Shown here one piece after another: positions 1,969 to 50,067 of a stretch of DNA of 64,000 nt. Below the pieces are notes generated by a model. That model had not been told where the DNA came from and did not search any database. It saw only the letters and a program-made list of their open reading frames with translations. This stretch comes from Myxococcota bacterium (lineage in GTDB: Bacteria; Myxococcota_A; Bradymonadia; UBA4248): contig JAZRVP010000042.1 of the NCBI GenBank assembly GCA_045599245.1, positions 6,351 through 70,350 of the forward strand. Direction: 5' to 3'. The translations under genes and the position numbers were made by a program. Every line of letters starts with the position of its first letter. Within the stretch, counting starts at the first letter, position 1.

Positions 1969-2201
1969 TTATGATTCCGGTTATTTGGTAAATATAGGGA
2001 CTGGGAAGTATCGGTTCGTGAGCCGATACCCATGCTCCCAAAAACCATGGCGTCGTGATCTGTATTGAGTAATACGCTCACAAGCATTGTGTATTGGCTG
2101 ACGGACAATAGCATTGTTATCTTTTCATATAAAATACTATTTTTGTTTGCGTGTCAAAGGCTCTCGAGCCTTCGACTGAATAGTAGTTACTTTTCTGCCA
2201 G

Positions 2202-2391
2202 GGAACCTCTGAATAAAACGCAATTTTAAGGCAGAAATTGATGAAAGCCGGGGGAGGCCTCGGCTTGGAATAATGGTTAGGCAGCTCCAAAGGCTAATAC
2301 TAACCTAAAATATTGCGGATTCTTAAGGGCTCAGCCCTTAAGCGGGGTCCGGGGCAGAGCCCCGGAAAAAAAACAATTAATCAGACCTTTC
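2202..2391. mobile_element. MITE with IS5-like terminal inverted repeats
   Basis: Ends GGAACCTCTGAATAA ... TTAATCAGACCTTTC; internal GGGCTCAGCCC and GGGGCAGAGCCCC hairpins are shared with other copies; no transposase ORF. Confidence 0.65.
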
Positions 2392-2413
2392 CTAACAAAA
2401 ATCGACATGCGAC

Positions 2414-2442
2414 CTGTAACAAATGAATCTCGATGGCATCAT
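2414..2442 (+). promoter_or_regulatory. Putative sigma70-type promoter of the ncRNA element (CTGTAA-17 nt-CATCAT with extended TG)
   Basis: CTGTAACAAATGA.T.TCGATGGCATCAT has the same spacing in all three copies and lies just 5' of the first hairpin; the match to consensus is weak. Confidence 0.35.
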
Positions 2443-2823
2443 ATATATTGCAGAGCAATCGGGCTCTGTATTGCAGGAGGTATGTTGTCGATCAGAGTAC
2501 AGGTGATTTCAGGTGACCGAATTCCAAACCGTTTGATGTGATGGATTCATTCTCTCAAATGAATTCATAAAACAACACATGAGTACGGATGTAGGAACCG
2601 CCCACATAACGTAACGAAACCAACTTGAATGTCTTGACGAAGCACATTGAGTATGGCCCGTTTACGGCACCAAGCGCATTGAGAGTACGCGTTTCCGGTC
2701 AGGTGACTTTTTCATGAATGAGAATGCCGCCGCCGGAGGAGTGTATTTTGTGTGCAAAGTGCGCCGGAAAACGGGCTGGCGGCGGTGGCGGGAATGGAGG
2801 GCCCTGATGTTTACAATAAAGTG

Positions 2824-2836
2824 TAACCATTTGATT
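2824..2836 (-). promoter_or_regulatory. IHF-binding consensus site (WATCAANNNNTTR)
   Basis: Reverse complement is AATCAAATGGTTA; equivalent sites occur at 23162-23174 and 50043-50055. Confidence 0.55.
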
Positions 2837-2906
2837 TTGTTTAATAAAATAGAGTTTGTACAGCTAGAGCAAAAAACTAAACAGGCGGTGAAGCCAGACA
2901 CTCTAA

Positions 2907-3226
2907 GGAAGGTCTGAATAAAACAAAACTAAGTTAACAAATGAGGAAAGCTGGGGGGGCGAGAAGGAAGGTGTCCGGTGGACGGCTGGCATCGCAGAGC
3001 CCAGTGAGCAAATGAAATGTTACCCTAAATTCCTCCTCGCCATAATGGAGAGGGGGAACGTCACGTAGTGACAAATGGGGGAGGCTGGCTCGGGAAACGA
3101 AGTGCATTTCATATTGCGAACTGAAGACAGGGGCAGAGCCCCAGAAAAAACTAATCTGACTTTCCGTAAGCGGGGTTCGGGGCAGAGCCCCTGCTGAGAT
3201 GTAACCTAAGTAGTAACAGACCTGCC
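2907..3226. mobile_element. IS5-like MITE with CTAA target-site duplication
   Basis: CTAA|GGAAGGTCTG ... CAGACCTGCC|CTAA: TIR matches at 9/10 and a 4-bp YTAR duplication typical of the IS5 subgroup. Confidence 0.7.
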
Positions 3227-3303: not shown

Positions 3304-6048
3304 ATGAAAAAGAAATTACTGTTCGGACTTTGTTTGGCTTCTGCCATGATGGCGTTTGCCTGTGATGAGACGACCGAGCCTCAGATAAATGAAGTGTGTC
3401 AGGATGAACAATACAAATGCCTGGATAATGTTTTGAAACACTGCATGAATGGCGTATGGCTGGATGATAAAATTTGCAATTCCAATCAAATGTGTTCTGA
3501 GAACGAAAAAACATGCGTCACCGACTTGCCTCTTGGACCGATCTGCAACAATGGCGAAATATTCTGTATCGATGAGGTGGCGTACAAATTCTGCGAAAAT
3601 GGCCAGTGGATGGACAAAATATGTGATATCGGCAAAAAATGCGACAAGTCGTCGAATCTGTGTGTCGGCATTTCCGATGTAAAGAACGATGAATGTACCC
3701 AGGACAGCTATTTTTGTTCAGCCGATGGGGCTTTAATGCATTGTGAGCAGGGCGTCTGGAAGACCAGTCAGATTTGTTCGGGGGATGAAGTCTGCGATGC
3801 TGAAAAGGGCGGATGTATTGTCCCGGAATGTTTGGAAAATGCGATGATTTGTATGGGAAACACCCTCATGCAGTGTCAGTCTGGGCAGAACGTCTCGATC
3901 AAAACCTGCGGCGAAAACGAACGTTGTAATGCATCGTTTGGAAAGTGTGATATGCCGCAGGTCGCTCCAGAAACAAACTGCACCTCAGGAACTCGCCGAT
4001 GTAATGCCGATTTGACTCAGGTCGAAAAATGTGTGGATGGCGACTGGACTGTCGATACGATTTGCCAGCAGGAAACGATTTGTGACAGGGAACTGAAGAT
4101 TTGTGTTCCGGAACCAAACGAATCCGGATCGGATTGCTCTGGTGTGGAAACGCGTTGCGATATCAATGGTTCGCGCCTTTTGATGTGTGAGAACGGTTAC
4201 TGGATCGAAAAAGAGAACTGCGATGCCGCTTCCGGACTTTCTTGTTATATGCGAGAGGACAGAGTTGCGTGTGAACAGATCGTTTGTTCAAATGGCTATT
4301 CTTGTGATGGAAATACGCTCCGGAAATGTGAGAATAATGCCTATACGGTTACAAAAGACTGCGGCAGTGAGGCCAAATGCAACGCAGATGCTGAAATGTG
4401 TGTTCCGAATGAATGCACGAATGGCGTGTATGTCTGTAGCGGTTCCACGCTTCGCAAATGTCTGGACGGGCATTGGACGGACAGTGCCATTTGTACGGCC
4501 AATGAAACCTGCAGTCAGGATGAAAAAAAATGTGTCGCAAATGAATGCACGAACGGCGTGTATGCCTGCAGCGGTTCCACGCTTCGCAAATGTGTGGACG
4601 GCCATTGGACGGACAATGCCATTTGTACGGCCAATGAAACCTGCAGTCAGGATGCCAAAAAGTGTATCGCCAATGAATGCAACGTGAATGAGGTGCGCTG
4701 TCAGGACGATGTCCTTCAGATTTGTGTTTCCGGCAAGTGGACGGCGAGTGTGAGCTGCGATTCCAGGATAGAAAAATGTGATGCGGAAACGAAATCGTGC
4801 AAGGCCATATCGGAATGTGCGAGCGGTTCGCGCAAATGCTCTGCGGACGAGACGACGCTTTACACATGTGAGGACGGCAAATGGAATGCGGGCACGGCAT
4901 GTGACAAATATATGAGATGTGATGCGGATGCGCGAGCCTGTGTGGATAAATATGTTTGCAATTACAATCTTTATTATTGCGAGGGGAGCGAACTCATCAA
5001 TTGCAACAACGTTTCCGGGGACGGGAAATTCCATGTGACGGCGACGTGTAAAGCCGATCAGATTTGCAATGCAAGCCTTCGCCGGTGTGTTGATGCCGGT
5101 GCGGGCGTGGTTTGTATTGGTGAGGAATACAGCTGTGACGACAAAACGCTGAGGGTCTGCAAACGTGACGGGTCGGGGTATGATACGGTCAGAACGTGCA
5201 GTGAAACGCAGACGTGTTATTCGGGCAGGACGAGCGGCTCATGTGTCGAGGCTCTCCCGGCTCCCGAATGGGCCAATATTCAGTGGGTTGAGGACAGGCT
5301 CGATCGCGGATACGGCCGTGTCAGGCTTCCCGCAGGTGTCAGCGACAGTCAGATATCGGCCGCCATTCGGTGCGGCAGCCTCTCTGAGCCTGTTAAAAAT
5401 TGGGTTTCGCAGGCAGCGGTCAAAAATGATCGTTGTCTCGACTGCGGGGAGAATGTCGTTGAATTCGTCAGTCCGGGGATTGATGTCAATCCCGGCACGC
5501 AGTCGTGTGTATTTACGTATGCATTTGGCGTCGACAATTATATCGGAACGAAAGAGGGCAAGGTCATTGCGATGAATGATTCAACCAAAGTGACTTTGAA
5601 CGATGTCATGACGCTCAAAATCAATCATCCCGATTATGTCGAGTGGCCGTCGTGGTGCAAGCAGACCTATCTCGCTGCGAAACTGGATGGCAGTGGTGCC
5701 TATTATCTTGAGGGCTATGGCCAGGTTTATCCGGGAGAGCTCAATGGTGGTCAGATCAAAGCTAAATTGTGGTGTTACAGCGGAACGACGCCGGGTAATG
5801 CGAATCAATATTTCGTCTATGGACACGAAAATGTTTTCTGCAGCAAAGAAACGTGCGGTGAAAACGTCGAGTATGCATTTAAAAAGACGCCTCTGGGCAA
5901 TGCGAATTCAACGCGTTGTATGATGTTGATAGAGATTGGTGAGAGCACCTATTATTGTCCGATGGATGATTCGCATTCAATGTATAAAAATTCTGCATCA
6001 TATCCGTCATTTGATCCGAATTTTGTATTGAATATTCGCATGGAATAG
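3304..6048 (+). CDS. Large Cys-rich repeat surface lipoprotein
   Basis: RBS AAGGAG; signal peptide with lipobox AFAC; many ~45-aa C-x-C-x-W-x-C modules. Confidence 0.85.
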   Translation: MKKKLLFGLCLASAMMAFACDETTEPQINEVCQDEQYKCLDNVLKHCMNGVWLDDKICNSNQMCSENEKTCVTDLPLGPICNNGEIFCIDEVAYKFCENGQWMDKICDIGKKCDKSSNLCVGISDVKNDECTQDSYFCSADGALMHCEQGVWKTSQICSGDEVCDAEKGGCIVPECLENAMICMGNTLMQCQSGQNVSIKTCGENERCNASFGKCDMPQVAPETNCTSGTRRCNADLTQVEKCVDGDWTVDTICQQETICDRELKICVPEPNESGSDCSGVETRCDINGSRLLMCENGYWIEKENCDAASGLSCYMREDRVACEQIVCSNGYSCDGNTLRKCENNAYTVTKDCGSEAKCNADAEMCVPNECTNGVYVCSGSTLRKCLDGHWTDSAICTANETCSQDEKKCVANECTNGVYACSGSTLRKCVDGHWTDNAICTANETCSQDAKKCIANECNVNEVRCQDDVLQICVSGKWTASVSCDSRIEKCDAETKSCKAISECASGSRKCSADETTLYTCEDGKWNAGTACDKYMRCDADARACVDKYVCNYNLYYCEGSELINCNNVSGDGKFHVTATCKADQICNASLRRCVDAGAGVVCIGEEYSCDDKTLRVCKRDGSGYDTVRTCSETQTCYSGRTSGSCVEALPAPEWANIQWVEDRLDRGYGRVRLPAGVSDSQISAAIRCGSLSEPVKNWVSQAAVKNDRCLDCGENVVEFVSPGIDVNPGTQSCVFTYAFGVDNYIGTKEGKVIAMNDSTKVTLNDVMTLKINHPDYVEWPSWCKQTYLAAKLDGSGAYYLEGYGQVYPGELNGGQIKAKLWCYSGTTPGNANQYFVYGHENVFCSKETCGENVEYAFKKTPLGNANSTRCMMLIEIGESTYYCPMDDSHSMYKNSASYPSFDPNFVLNIRME
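4408..4671 (+). repeat. Recent in-frame tandem duplication (2 x 132 bp) inside the Cys-rich gene
   Basis: NECTNGVY(V/A)CSGSTLRKC(L/V)DGHWTD(S/N)AICTANETCSQD occurs twice; units start at 4408 and 4540, and a third starts at 4672. Confidence 0.9.
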
Positions 6049-23099: not shown

Positions 23100-23619
23100 G
23101 TCTGGATTCACAGCCTGCCTATTCTTTGATTTGACTGCATAAAGCCTATTTTGTTAAATAAAATCAACGGGTTACATTTTGAGGTTACATTTCGTTGTGA
23201 ACATCAGGGCCCTCCATACCCGCCACCGCCGCCAGCCCGTTTTCCGGCGCGCTTTGCGCACAAAATACACTCCTCCGGTGGCGGCCTTCTCATTCATGAA
23301 AAAGTCACCTGACCGAAAACGCGTACTCTCAATGCGTCTGGTGCCGTAAACGGGCCATACTCAATGTGCTTCGTCAAGACATTCAAGTTGGTTTCGTTAC
23401 GTTATGGGGTCGGTTCCTACATCCGCATTCATTTGCTGTTTTATGGATTCATTTGAGAGAATGAAACCATCACATCAAACGGCTGAGAACTCGGTCACCT
23501 GCAATCACCTGTACTCTGATCGGCAACATCCCTCCGGCAATGCAGAGCCCGATTGCCCTGCAATATATATGATGCCATCGAGATTCATTTGTTACAGATC
23601 GCATGTCGATTTTTGTTAG
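23100..23619 (-). ncRNA. Multicopy structured non-coding element, copy 2
   Basis: Reverse complement aligns end to end with 2392-2899 (high identity by eye); substitutions mostly keep pairing. Confidence 0.7.
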
Positions 23620-24002
23620 GGACCTCTGAATAAAGATATTTACCTGTTTTTTTCTGGGGCTTTGCCCCTGTCCTCAGTTCGCAATATGAAATGCACTTCG
23701 TTTCCCGAGCCTGTCGGCTTTCCAACTTGTTCATTTCATTTGCTCACTGGGCTCTGTGGTTTTCGCCATTCACAGGATGGCGAAAATCCTCGGCCTCCCA
23801 CCAAAGGGATGAGCCCTTTGGAATCCTCAATATTTTTAGGTGGTATAAGCTTTTTGAGCTGCCTAACCATGATTCCTCGCTGGGACCCAACCCCCAGCTC
23901 CCTTCAATTTCTGCCGAATAATTGTGTATTATTCGGACCTTCTTTAAGAAACCGCAATATTTTAAATCGGTGAGCCTGATAATTGTGTTTTGTTCAGAGG
24001 GG
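23620..24002. mobile_element. IS5-like MITE copy
   Basis: TTAG|GGACCTCTGAATAA ... TGTTCAGAGG; contains modules found in both the 2202 and 2907 copies. Confidence 0.65.
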
Positions 24003-49139: not shown

Positions 49140-49603
49140 AAATTATGCGCTTCTTATCAAGGGACTGTCCAGTGAAGAGAATGTACTATTCAGTCTGGGC
49201 TTTGCCCCGATTCCTCAGTTCGCAATATGAAATGAACATCGTTTCCCGAGCCAACCCTTCCCTTTTGTCATTACCTGACGTTCTCCCTCTTTGTCTCTAT
49301 TTGGACAAAAAAGTGCGAGAGGTTGAAGAAATAGTTCAGTTATAACAATTATAAAGGCGAATTTTTGTGTCAAAGGATGGCTGTCCGATGTGTGTAAATG
49401 TGTTGGAGGGGACATCCGAATAAGTCATATCACGAAAAAGAAAAAGCTGATGGAGTCATTGATTTATGCCGGTATTGAGATGGCAGTCTTTTCATGACAC
49501 GGTGAAAAAGGAAGATAAAGGCGTGGGGGGAGGGTAAAAAATCACTGTGGAAGAATTTTAATAAAGCAGTATTTATATGTCCTGAAAAAGAGAATCTTTT
49601 TTT

Positions 49604-50067
49604 ACAAAAAAGCATGCTGACTGTAACAAATGATTTTCGATGGCATCATATATAGTGCAGGGCAATGAAGCTTTGTCAAACAGGAGGTGAATGACCGGCG
49701 AGAGTACGAAAGGTAATAGGTGACTGAAAGTCCGGTTGTTTGTTGTTATGACATCATCTTCTCAAATGCTGTCATGAAATAACAAATGAACAGGGAAGTA
49801 GGAACCGTCAACATAACGAAACGGAATCGACTTGATAATTTTGACGAAGATAATTGAGTATGACCTGTTTCGTCACCATTGCGCATTGAGAGTACGCGTC
49901 TTCGGGAGTGGGTGACTTTTTCAAGAAGGAAAAAGCCGTCACCGTGGGATTGTATTTTGTGCGCAGGACTCACAAAAAATTGGGTTGGCGAGTCGGTGGG
50001 ACTGGGGGGCCCTAAGTGTGGTGGGGGGAAAAAGCGCAGGCATAACTTATTGATTTTATTAAACAAA
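49604..50067 (+). ncRNA. Multicopy structured non-coding element, copy 3 (divergent)
   Basis: Collinear conserved blocks CTGTAACAAATGA, CGATGGCATCATATA, AGAGTAC..AGGTGAC, CTCAAATG, GTAGGAACCG, CATAACG, TTGACGAAG, GCGCATTGAGAGTACGCG, GGTGACTTTTTCA, GTATTTTGTG.GCA, GGGCCCT; compensatory stems. Confidence 0.7.

Follow-up and report, generated by a model that had tools for sequence, protein, structure and literature searches.

A window of 64 kb (positions 6351-70350 of contig C42 in G000, a 4.58-Mb genome in 296 contigs) holds three copies, here called A, B and C, of an intergenic element which appears to specify a structured RNA of several domains and about 350-400 nt, hitherto undescribed, which has a promoter of its own and in copy A is read along the plus strand. 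Strong covariation, the lack of an Rfam match and the lack of any insertion sequence (IS) or intron signature point that way, and so agree with what a preliminary description of the same DNA had proposed. The copies belong to a family that occurs many times over in genomes of the genus, its members having in common a covarying structure, a promoter and a very short open reading frame (micro-ORF) with a coding-type pattern of codon variation. Our preferred reading, which we hold to be rather probable and which at that strength covers no specific mode of action in trans, is that these are independently transcribed structured RNAs, co-regulated with competence genes and equipped with a functional micro-ORF.

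Structure and covariation of the RNA

The 157-nt central domain, comprising two long hairpins in which 52 pairs were tested, is well supported as structured RNA by compensatory changes and by strand-specific G-U pairs. Alignment A2 holds 17 copies and was folded with RNAalifold, A3 holds 20 copies, and A5 holds 34 sequences from two species, namely the A3 copies, 12 from the sister genome G009 and two diverged members from contigs C33 and C191. RNAalifold gave 69 pairs for the 17 copies, 15 of them with compensatory changes. Across A3 standard pairs fill 93.4% of cells (37-51% when the partners are slid) and 15 of the 52 pairs are changed on both sides, values that none of 500 shuffles reached. 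Across A5 the paired cells amount to 89.3%, against 37-52% with slid partners, and changes on both sides affect 39 of the 52 pairs and 222 cells, again reached by none of 500 shuffles, with the proviso that fitting A5 to the structure of the model biases it towards that structure, and that the shuffle control overstates significance because the 34 sequences are paralogues from just two species. Several pairs are mostly G-U (pair 118-198 is GU in 23 of 34 sequences and pair 108-207 is UG in 21 of 22 lettered cells of A5), which on the opposite strand would read A-C, and so the RNA strand is taken to be the one downstream of the promoter, the orientation that the preliminary description had deduced from its wobbles.

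The helices proposed in that description were for the most part found again, both in the RNAalifold fold and in the pair counts, and show compensatory changes; this goes for the 5' hairpin, for the GACG-capped hairpin and for the hairpin at 2541-2568 that had been compared with 49748-49775 in copy C. In the last of these, formed by AUGGAUUCAU and AUGAAUUCAU, between three and five sequences per pair are changed on both sides in A2. A hairpin analogous to the 5' one of copy A stands at the same place in the RNAs of sister species. The remaining helix, said to join AAGCGC or AGACGC to GCGTTT, is not supported and was rejected; its GCGC pairs instead over a long range with a GUGCGC some 75 nt downstream at the far end of hairpin 2, and this pair set covaries between species (CG in 22 and GC in 11 sequences at one pair of A5). 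Further long-range contacts are suggested. The loop UCUCAA (2552-2557) is complementary to an invariant UUGAGA (2679-2684), with a seventh pair that varies (C:G 5, U:G 5, U:A 3, A:U 1, A:G 6), and UGGCCCG could pair with CGGGCUG, and both of these are candidate pseudoknots; the junction after hairpin 1 may likewise pair with the G-rich tail. The G-rich 3' domain falls into two sequence subfamilies within the genome. A longer ORF across this domain (2714-2917) was considered and rejected, its ATG and frame not being kept in other copies.

Relation to described RNAs

The whole 64-kb window has no Rfam 15 match at gathering thresholds, and an E-value scan of 2300-3000 returned sub-threshold noise only, the best score being 19.5 bits against a threshold of 72; scans of the diverged relatives and of the sister-species RNAs likewise gave no match. 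That the element is not RNase P, tmRNA, 6S or another described family, as had been supposed, is borne out in that no such Rfam model matches. The models for HEARO, GOLLD, ROOL, OLE, raiA, group I and II introns and hammerhead ribozymes did not reach their gathering thresholds either, and so the likeness earlier drawn to HEARO, ROOL, GOLLD and OLE holds in scale but does not extend to a match with any of their models. A literature search of limited coverage brought up no earlier account of an RNA or a promoter of this kind.

By BLAST the element matches only its own genome among the 41 searched, with nothing in the 40 relatives. The signature ACATAACG-N23-TGACGA-N22-25-CGGCWCC has no match in metagenome contigs and two in species-representative genomes, a Herminiimonas and an Actinomycetes metagenome-assembled genome (MAG), where about two are expected by chance; records of the window's own or a very near genome may be left out of both scans. 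Both were set aside as chance matches, the covariance model giving E 0.0098 for one and no match for the other.

Copies in the genome

The copies lie where they had been placed, A at 2392-2899 (+), B at 23619-23100 (-) and C at 49604-50067 (+), and are 88% identical by blastn between A and B and about 74% between either of these and C. Their gene contexts are indeed unrelated, with A between a kinase gene and a 914-amino-acid (aa) ORF, B between genes for a HAD hydrolase and gyrA, and C between genes for an FG-GAP protein and an FkbM methyltransferase. The 914-aa ORF (3304-6048, +) on the 3' side of copy A gave neither a Pfam domain nor a usable protein-atlas match. GyrA has its closest named relatives in 'MAG: Proteobacteria bacterium' entries, at 66-73% identity, and in a Myxococcota MAG at 57%. 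The count of three was too low for the genome as a whole, in which a profile of the window copies finds 34 nhmmer matches at E <= 1e-3; 20 cover more than 350 profile positions and count as full-length, and 14 are partial and mostly confined to the first 50-100 nt. The covariance model adds the diverged members on C33 and C191, for a total of 22. The copies are dispersed and intergenic, many at contig ends, and their pairwise identities run from 70 to 90% with no near-identical pair.

The extent of the element also needs amending. The end of copy A had been put at 2899, but similarity beyond 2804 is restricted to the closest copies, and family-wide conservation stops at the GGGCCC ending at 2804, after which comes a short U-rich tail. 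At 26-48 nt past GGGCCC a U-rich motif of TTGATTTT type occurs in 12 of 18 copies, preceded by weak hairpins of -0.4 to -5.8 kcal/mol. In the 20-copy alignment with flanks, similarity fades at the A-tract on the 5' side and past the tail on the 3' side.

Several observations on repeats and rearrangements were made alongside. On contig C57 (34397-34577) the promoter and first 60 nt of the RNA are duplicated in tandem, on C177 (13146-13194) 49 nt of the 3' domain recur immediately 3' of the RNA copy, and on C210 (6889-7018, -) the promoter is followed by about 130 nt of RNA-like sequence and then by divergence, so that this is a truncated or a different member. A separate family of short repeats, present 100-200 times per genome and marked by GGGGCAGAGCCCC-type hairpins and the motif CAGAGCCCAGTGAGCAAATGAAATG, adjoins copies A and B (window 2200-2380, 2940-3200 and 23640-23800). 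Units of this family, about 150 nt long and with the look of a miniature inverted-repeat transposable element (MITE), are inserted in the G-rich tail of two RNA genes of G009 (loci L113 and L125).

Dispersed intergenic multicopy occurrence, with many copies at contig ends, several flanked by this very abundant other repeat, copy A bracketed by an 18-nt inverted repeat and no BLAST match in any of 40 relatives, is also what a non-autonomous MITE-like mobile DNA element might present, its promoter facing outward by chance and its hairpins serving transposition. We regard this as quite unlikely. The 18-nt repeat is part of the flanking 100-200-copy family and is absent at B and C, no terminal inverted repeat is common to the three window copies, no target-site duplications are shared among copies, no transposase lies nearby, and the copies, at 70-90% identity, include no near-identical pair. 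The strand-asymmetric G-U pairs and compensatory changes indicate selection on an RNA. The family would moreover be old and vertically inherited, since diverged homologues bearing each species' own promoter variant occur in sister species.

A promoter common to the RNAs and competence genes

The promoter-like block of fixed spacing that had been noted ahead of the element is real, as judged by the aligned copies and by a genome-wide count in which the pattern GTMACA-N15-CATCAT has 32 matches and its reversed control none. Where no RNA follows, the promoter precedes genes for DprA, ComM (Mg_chelatase), ComEC (Competence, Lactamase_B and DUF4131) and a DUF3006 protein, and further, by Pfam assignment in this genome, three PDDEXK_2 genes, one Transposase_31 gene and one ADP-ribosylglycohydrolase gene, together with a 144-aa ORF that has no Pfam match. 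In the upstream regions collected from G001-G010 it is kept 5' of orthologous dprA and/or comM in nine sister genomes, in species variants such as …GAGGTAATCAT in G009, …GGCACCAT in G003 and G006 and …GTCATCAT in G010, and the RNA genes of each species bear that species' own variant. Five genomes from other genera of the family gave few, heterogeneous matches only and no comparable promoter cluster.

Gene content and the fixed 15-nt spacing lead to reading this as the promoter of a natural-transformation-type regulon. The sigma factor that recognises GTMACA-N15-CATCAT is probably an alternative one. Scanning with the sigma-70 consensus gave no promoter, and a sigma-54 reading of TGGCAT…TTGCA was ruled out by its spacing. 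That the regulon controls transformation we infer from the genes in it.

In sister species too the promoter lies 5' of PDDEXK_2, Transposase_31 and ADP_ribosyl_GH genes. The nuclease and ADP-ribosylglycohydrolase genes under the promoter lie on contigs C65, C201, C251, C77 (at 83.8k) and C183 of G000 and at loci L152, L160, L185 and L128 of relatives, and the presence of PD-(D/E)XK (Rpn-like) nucleases and an ADP-ribosylglycohydrolase beside dprA, comM and comEC is a conserved and unusual make-up for a regulon across several species of the genus.

The nuclease genes bring up the idea of a guide or scaffold RNA of OMEGA or HEARO kind, perhaps with the co-regulated PD-(D/E)XK (Rpn-like) nucleases as partners and with DNA, whether incoming or resident, as the substrate during transformation. 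The promoter is found ahead of PDDEXK_2 and Transposase_31 genes both here and in G004, G006, G007 and G009. The RNAs exist in many copies, as do HEARO RNAs, and combine a constant scaffold with a 5' region that varies between them. Yet no RNA copy adjoins a nuclease gene, the variable regions have no BLAST match elsewhere in the genome, the HEARO model does not match, and in G003 and G006 nuclease genes lie under the promoter while the searches made found no RNA, and on this evidence a guide function seems very unlikely.

Distribution in the genus

Covariance-model searches scored 150 of roughly 500-1,800 first-look candidates per genome, and among these model R1 gave two weak matches in G009, and model R2, built on 34 sequences, gave 22 in G000, 16 in G009, one in G008 and none in the other 16 of the 19 genomes of the order. 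Further RNAs were sought by anchoring on each species' promoter variant. For G009, with 23 promoter matches, 11 of 21 inspected downstream stretches carry the ATAACG, GACG and TGTATTTT motifs, and four of the 21 are cut by contig ends. G004 has 14 promoter matches, and at 12 of 13 fetched loci a non-coding RNA, about 290 nt long and termed type II, comes after the promoter. G008 has at least five such RNAs, and G010 has 44 promoter matches, and all six sampled loci with the commonest variant are of type II. A third RNA type was seen at four of five sampled loci in G005, one of three in G007 and none of four in G001. Type II RNAs have covariation of their own (43 pairs, 17 compensatory, in 19 sequences from three species) and keep the order of parts of the window family, running from a 5' hairpin through a Shine-Dalgarno sequence (SD) and micro-ORF, a GACG-capped hairpin and a long hairpin to a G-rich tail that ends GGG…CCC.

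Altogether multicopy RNAs of this kind were found in at least seven of the 11 genomes of the genus. By the searches made they were not found in G001, G002, G003 and G006, all of them incomplete MAGs.

The micro-ORF

The element had been described as free of ORFs, and this stands in that there is no conventional shared ORF, but not for a micro-ORF led by an SD and an ATG about 40 nt past the promoter, with coding-type codon variation. Its layout is regular, with GGAG or GAGG some 40 nt past CATCAT, a short spacer, ATG and 3-12 codons. Of 58 RNAs 48 have such an SD, ATG and short ORF; shuffled sequences give 4.3 on average and 11 at most, and the reverse complements give none of 58. All 21 type II sequences encode M-[YF]-x-[ST]-G-F-[VILT]-stop with varied codons for glycine (GGA 13, GGT 2, GGC 5, GGG 1), phenylalanine (TTT 13, TTC 8) and stop (TGA 13, TAA 8). 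On the type I side 12 sequences, from G009 and from six diverged copies of this genome, encode M(M)-x-x-R-[AS]-[SP]-P, with arginine as AGA, CGT, CGA or CGC. The codon variation of both types is the pattern of a translated peptide, and translation of the micro-ORF is thought reasonably likely. As a separate observation, four G009 loci (L125, L120, L126 and L078) have heptamer microsatellites, (TGCAATG)n with up to about eight units, straight after the promoter in place of the 5' hairpin.

Some of the type I peptides end in the manner of ribosome arrest motifs, the six shown from G009 being RAPP, RSPP (twice) and RASP (three times) and those of the six diverged copies of this genome RAPP (once), RASP (four times) and RSSP (once). 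In PMC12992588 RAPP, RGPP, RAGP (as in SecM) and RSPP are described as arrest-competent or arrest-permissive and as strongly avoided in proteomes, and an arrest motif alone is described as insufficient when its N-terminal context is missing. Stalling of ribosomes on the micro-ORF is put forward as a tentative suggestion that we would not ourselves rate as likely. Neither the three window copies nor the main clade of this genome have the RAPP-like motif. Where closer relatives have the stop after the sixth codon, copy A reads CAG, the micro-ORF of copy C encodes MTGESTKGNR, and what is conserved in the window copies is the predicted ribosome-binding site with a short frame, not the peptide.

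Were the micro-peptide itself the functional product, for instance as a competence signalling or regulatory peptide, the structured part would reduce to a stabilising 3' untranslated region. Peptide pheromones do control competence in other bacteria, the SD is strong and canonically spaced, and conservation at the level of codons, with synonymous variation, is seen across three species for MYxSGF(V/I/T) and across two for M..R[AS][SP]P. We nonetheless think it unlikely, given that in the main clade of this genome conservation extends to the 300-nt domain but not to the peptide, that the peptide differs wholly between RNA types while the RNA architecture is kept, and that the structured domain, the most conserved part and one with 39 covarying pairs, exceeds what a stabiliser would need.

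Gene neighbourhood and the stand-alone unit

Neighbour orientation was read from naive ORF lists, the neighbour on each side being the closest ORF with 200 aa or more. Of 18 copies, 15 have a divergent ORF upstream, and of 14 copies 11 have a convergent one downstream, and on account of this arrangement the RNA unit is considered to stand alone and not to be the leader of a downstream gene. Over the 20 loci of G000 the RNA genes are antisense to both neighbours far beyond chance. No common ORF of at least 100 aa lies beside the 20 copies. The preliminary description had suggested looking for linkage to a transposase, nuclease or reverse transcriptase, and at the flanks no transposase, reverse transcriptase, IscB or TnpB gene is adjacent and no copy adjoins a nuclease gene; an IscB or TnpB neighbour and an IS200/IS605 end were not found at the 20 copies, the Pfam run covering the neighbours of the window copies. 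The element itself showed no signature of an IS or of an intron.

A leader-peptide-like micro-ORF placed 5' of alternative structures is the classic layout of an attenuator, and with the downstream neighbour convergent in 11 of 14 copies and no strong terminator found, read-through antisense transcription is possible. The element could then be a cis-acting or antisense regulator of its neighbours, whether as a long leader containing a leader peptide or by convergent transcription that would silence the gene downstream when competence sets in. But a co-directional downstream gene follows in only three of 14 copies and those genes are unrelated, the neighbours have no shared function, and antisense read-through needs no conserved domain of 300 nt, so that a role of this sort appears very improbable.

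Coordinates for the parts of the three window copies are collected in Table 1.

Table 1. Parts of copies A, B and C, in window coordinates
Feature	Position	Strand	Basis or remark
Copy A promoter block: A-tract, TCGAC 2402-2406, -35-like GTAACA 2416-2421, 15-nt spacer, -10-like CATCAT 2437-2442	2395-2442	+	Kept in 20 of 20 copies
Copy A 5' hairpin, UGCAGAGC / GCUCUGUA	2449-2470	+	A2 pairs 7-13 with 20-26, GC to AU changes; presumed just past transcription start
Copy A SD AGGAGG (2475-2480) and micro-ORF, ATG 2482 to TGA 2541, encoding MLSIRVQVISGDRIPNRLM and stop	2475-2541	+	Longer and degenerate version of the micro-ORF, which in the family has 5-10 codons
Copy A hairpin AUGGAUUCAU / AUGAAUUCAU, invariant loop UCUCAA 2552-2557	2541-2568	+	A2 pairs 123-130 with 139-146
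Copy A central domain	2602-2755	+	Covariance models R1 and R2; 170.5 bits
Copy A hairpin 1, CUU-GACG-AAG cap (loop 2636-2639)	2610-2666	+	Followed by junction CGGCACCA
Copy A hairpin 2, about 33 bp	2675-2755	+	Pair counts
Copy A G-rich 3' domain (…CGCC-GGAAAACGGGCU-GGCG…GGUGGCGGG…GGGCCC)	2756-2804	+	Alignments; fold is a candidate
Copy A 3' tail, weak AU-rich hairpin, then UUUGAUUUUGUUU	2805-2845	+	Probable 3' end
Copy B, whole	23207-23614	-	Promoter 23614-23569 (GTAACA 23595-23590, CATCAT 23574-23569)
Copy B, internal parts	Micro-ORF 23529-23470; central domain 23409-23256; GGGCCC end 23207	-	Covariance model 165.6 bits
Copy C, whole (diverged subfamily with GACUC/GAGUC tail)	49602-50012	+	GTAACA 49623-49628, CATCAT 49644-49649
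Copy C, internal parts	SD 49682-49687; micro-ORF 49691-49723; central domain 49809-49964; GGGCCC end 50012	+	Covariance model 147.9 bits

Proposed mode of action

Each copy would stand alone as the gene of a structured RNA, about 400 nt long and transcribed from the specialised GTMACA-N15-CATCAT promoter that would also drive dprA, comM, comEC and the PD-(D/E)XK nuclease genes, and so the RNAs would be induced alongside the DNA-uptake machinery. The 5' part of the transcript would fold a small hairpin and then present the SD and a micro-ORF of 5-10 codons, probably translated, which in part of the family ends in stall-type motifs, either of the RAPP, RSPP or RASP type or as Pro-Pro-stop. Termination at proline-stop can stall ribosomes. 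Beyond this would come the conserved, pseudoknot-capable domain of about 300 nt with its GACG-capped hairpin, its hairpin of about 33 bp and its G-rich tail. A ribosome loaded on the micro-ORF, and possibly paused there, may govern the folding or stability of the downstream domain, which may then work in trans as a protein-binding or ribosome-binding scaffold; the trans-acting role is one that we infer. A bolder version has some 20 paralogous RNAs per cell each trap a ribosome on an arrest-type micro-ORF and then act through the large pseudoknotted domain within a natural-transformation programme, either on the translation apparatus (a ribosome trap or growth arrest in competence) or as programmable partners of the PD-(D/E)XK nucleases on incoming DNA, and this we consider doubtful.

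Several points weigh against the reading of the family as independently transcribed RNAs of the competence regulon with a functional micro-ORF, in addition to the provisos already attached to A5. Transcript start, transcript end and expression are all deduced from the DNA, and the protein partner of the RNAs is putative. A look-up of sequencing runs listed none of RNA, and three DNA or unknown runs with small shares (0.04-0.07). A consensus scan of 2300-3000 found no canonical terminator. Model R2 scores RNAs of types II and III at just E 0.07-0.95, and so their homology with the window family is argued from architecture and promoter and not from score. The micro-ORF peptide is degenerate in the window copies and in most of the main clade (MLSIRV…, MTGESTKGNR), which leaves the arrest-motif idea to rest on the other copies and on G009, and these arrest-like peptides have just 7-9 residues. 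Pairing proposed between the micro-ORF and the GGUGACCGA motif failed the pair check, and so a concrete switch stays hypothetical.

What the family adds for the genus is a defined competence-type promoter and regulon where there was no prior knowledge of transformation, the regulon including the 'Rpn-like' PD-(D/E)XK nucleases and the ADP-ribosylglycohydrolase. The questions it raises are whether a peptide of 7-9 residues ending in RAPP or PP-stop can stall a ribosome, what binds the GACG-capped and G-rich domains, and why a genome should keep 12-25 copies.

Comparison with known systems

OLE, GOLLD, ROOL and raiA resemble the window family in being several hundred nt long, with a covarying multi-helix architecture, invariant loops and a biochemical role that is not known. 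Their models do not match, and they differ from a family with 12-25 chromosomal copies per genome, a regulon promoter and an SD-led micro-ORF, which as far as searched is confined to one genus. Large structured RNAs in many copies per genome are also found in the HEARO or IscB omega-RNAs and the TnpB reRNAs of IS200/IS605 elements. The window family has no adjacent IscB, TnpB or other shared ORF, no IS ends and no match to the Rfam HEARO model, and in contrast to those RNAs has its own upstream promoter, common to host competence genes. MITEs and repetitive extragenic palindromic (REP)-type repeats too occur as dispersed intergenic copies that fragment assemblies, whereas the window family lacks terminal inverted repeats and target duplications, consists of old and diverged copies and displays strand-specific G-U covariation; a MITE-like family of 100-200 copies adjoins the element and affords the contrast.

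The short ORF recalls the RAPP-type arrest peptides (ApdA, ApdP and ApcA, with SecM ending in RAGP) in that it ends R-A-P-P, R-S-P-P or R-A-S-P in part of the family. Known arrest peptides (PMC12992588, PMC10951233, PMC7897499, PMC10951299, PMC10987492) are tens of residues long, need N-terminal context and lie 5' of a regulated protein gene. The window family by comparison offers 7-9 codons with no gene following, and its three window copies lack the motif.

RNAIII of Staphylococcus with hld, and SgrS with SgrT, join a translated small ORF to a structured regulatory RNA within a population-state or stress regulon; they are single-copy, have ORFs of 26-43 codons and act on known base-pairing targets, as against some 20 paralogues with ORFs of 5-10 codons and a target that is not known. 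Streptococcal csRNAs and the Qrr RNAs of Vibrio are paralogous RNAs under one regulator's promoter and tied to competence or quorum state. Their sets comprise 4-5 copies, each about 100 nt long and acting through seed pairing, whereas the window family has a complex fold, a length of about 400 nt and 12-25 copies. If expressed as proposed here, the RNAs would constitute a new class of large structured bacterial RNA in which three features not seen together before are combined, namely paralogues numbering dozens on the chromosome, regulation in common with genes for DNA uptake and recombination in an uncultivated lineage, and a conserved micro-ORF that is arrest-like in some members.

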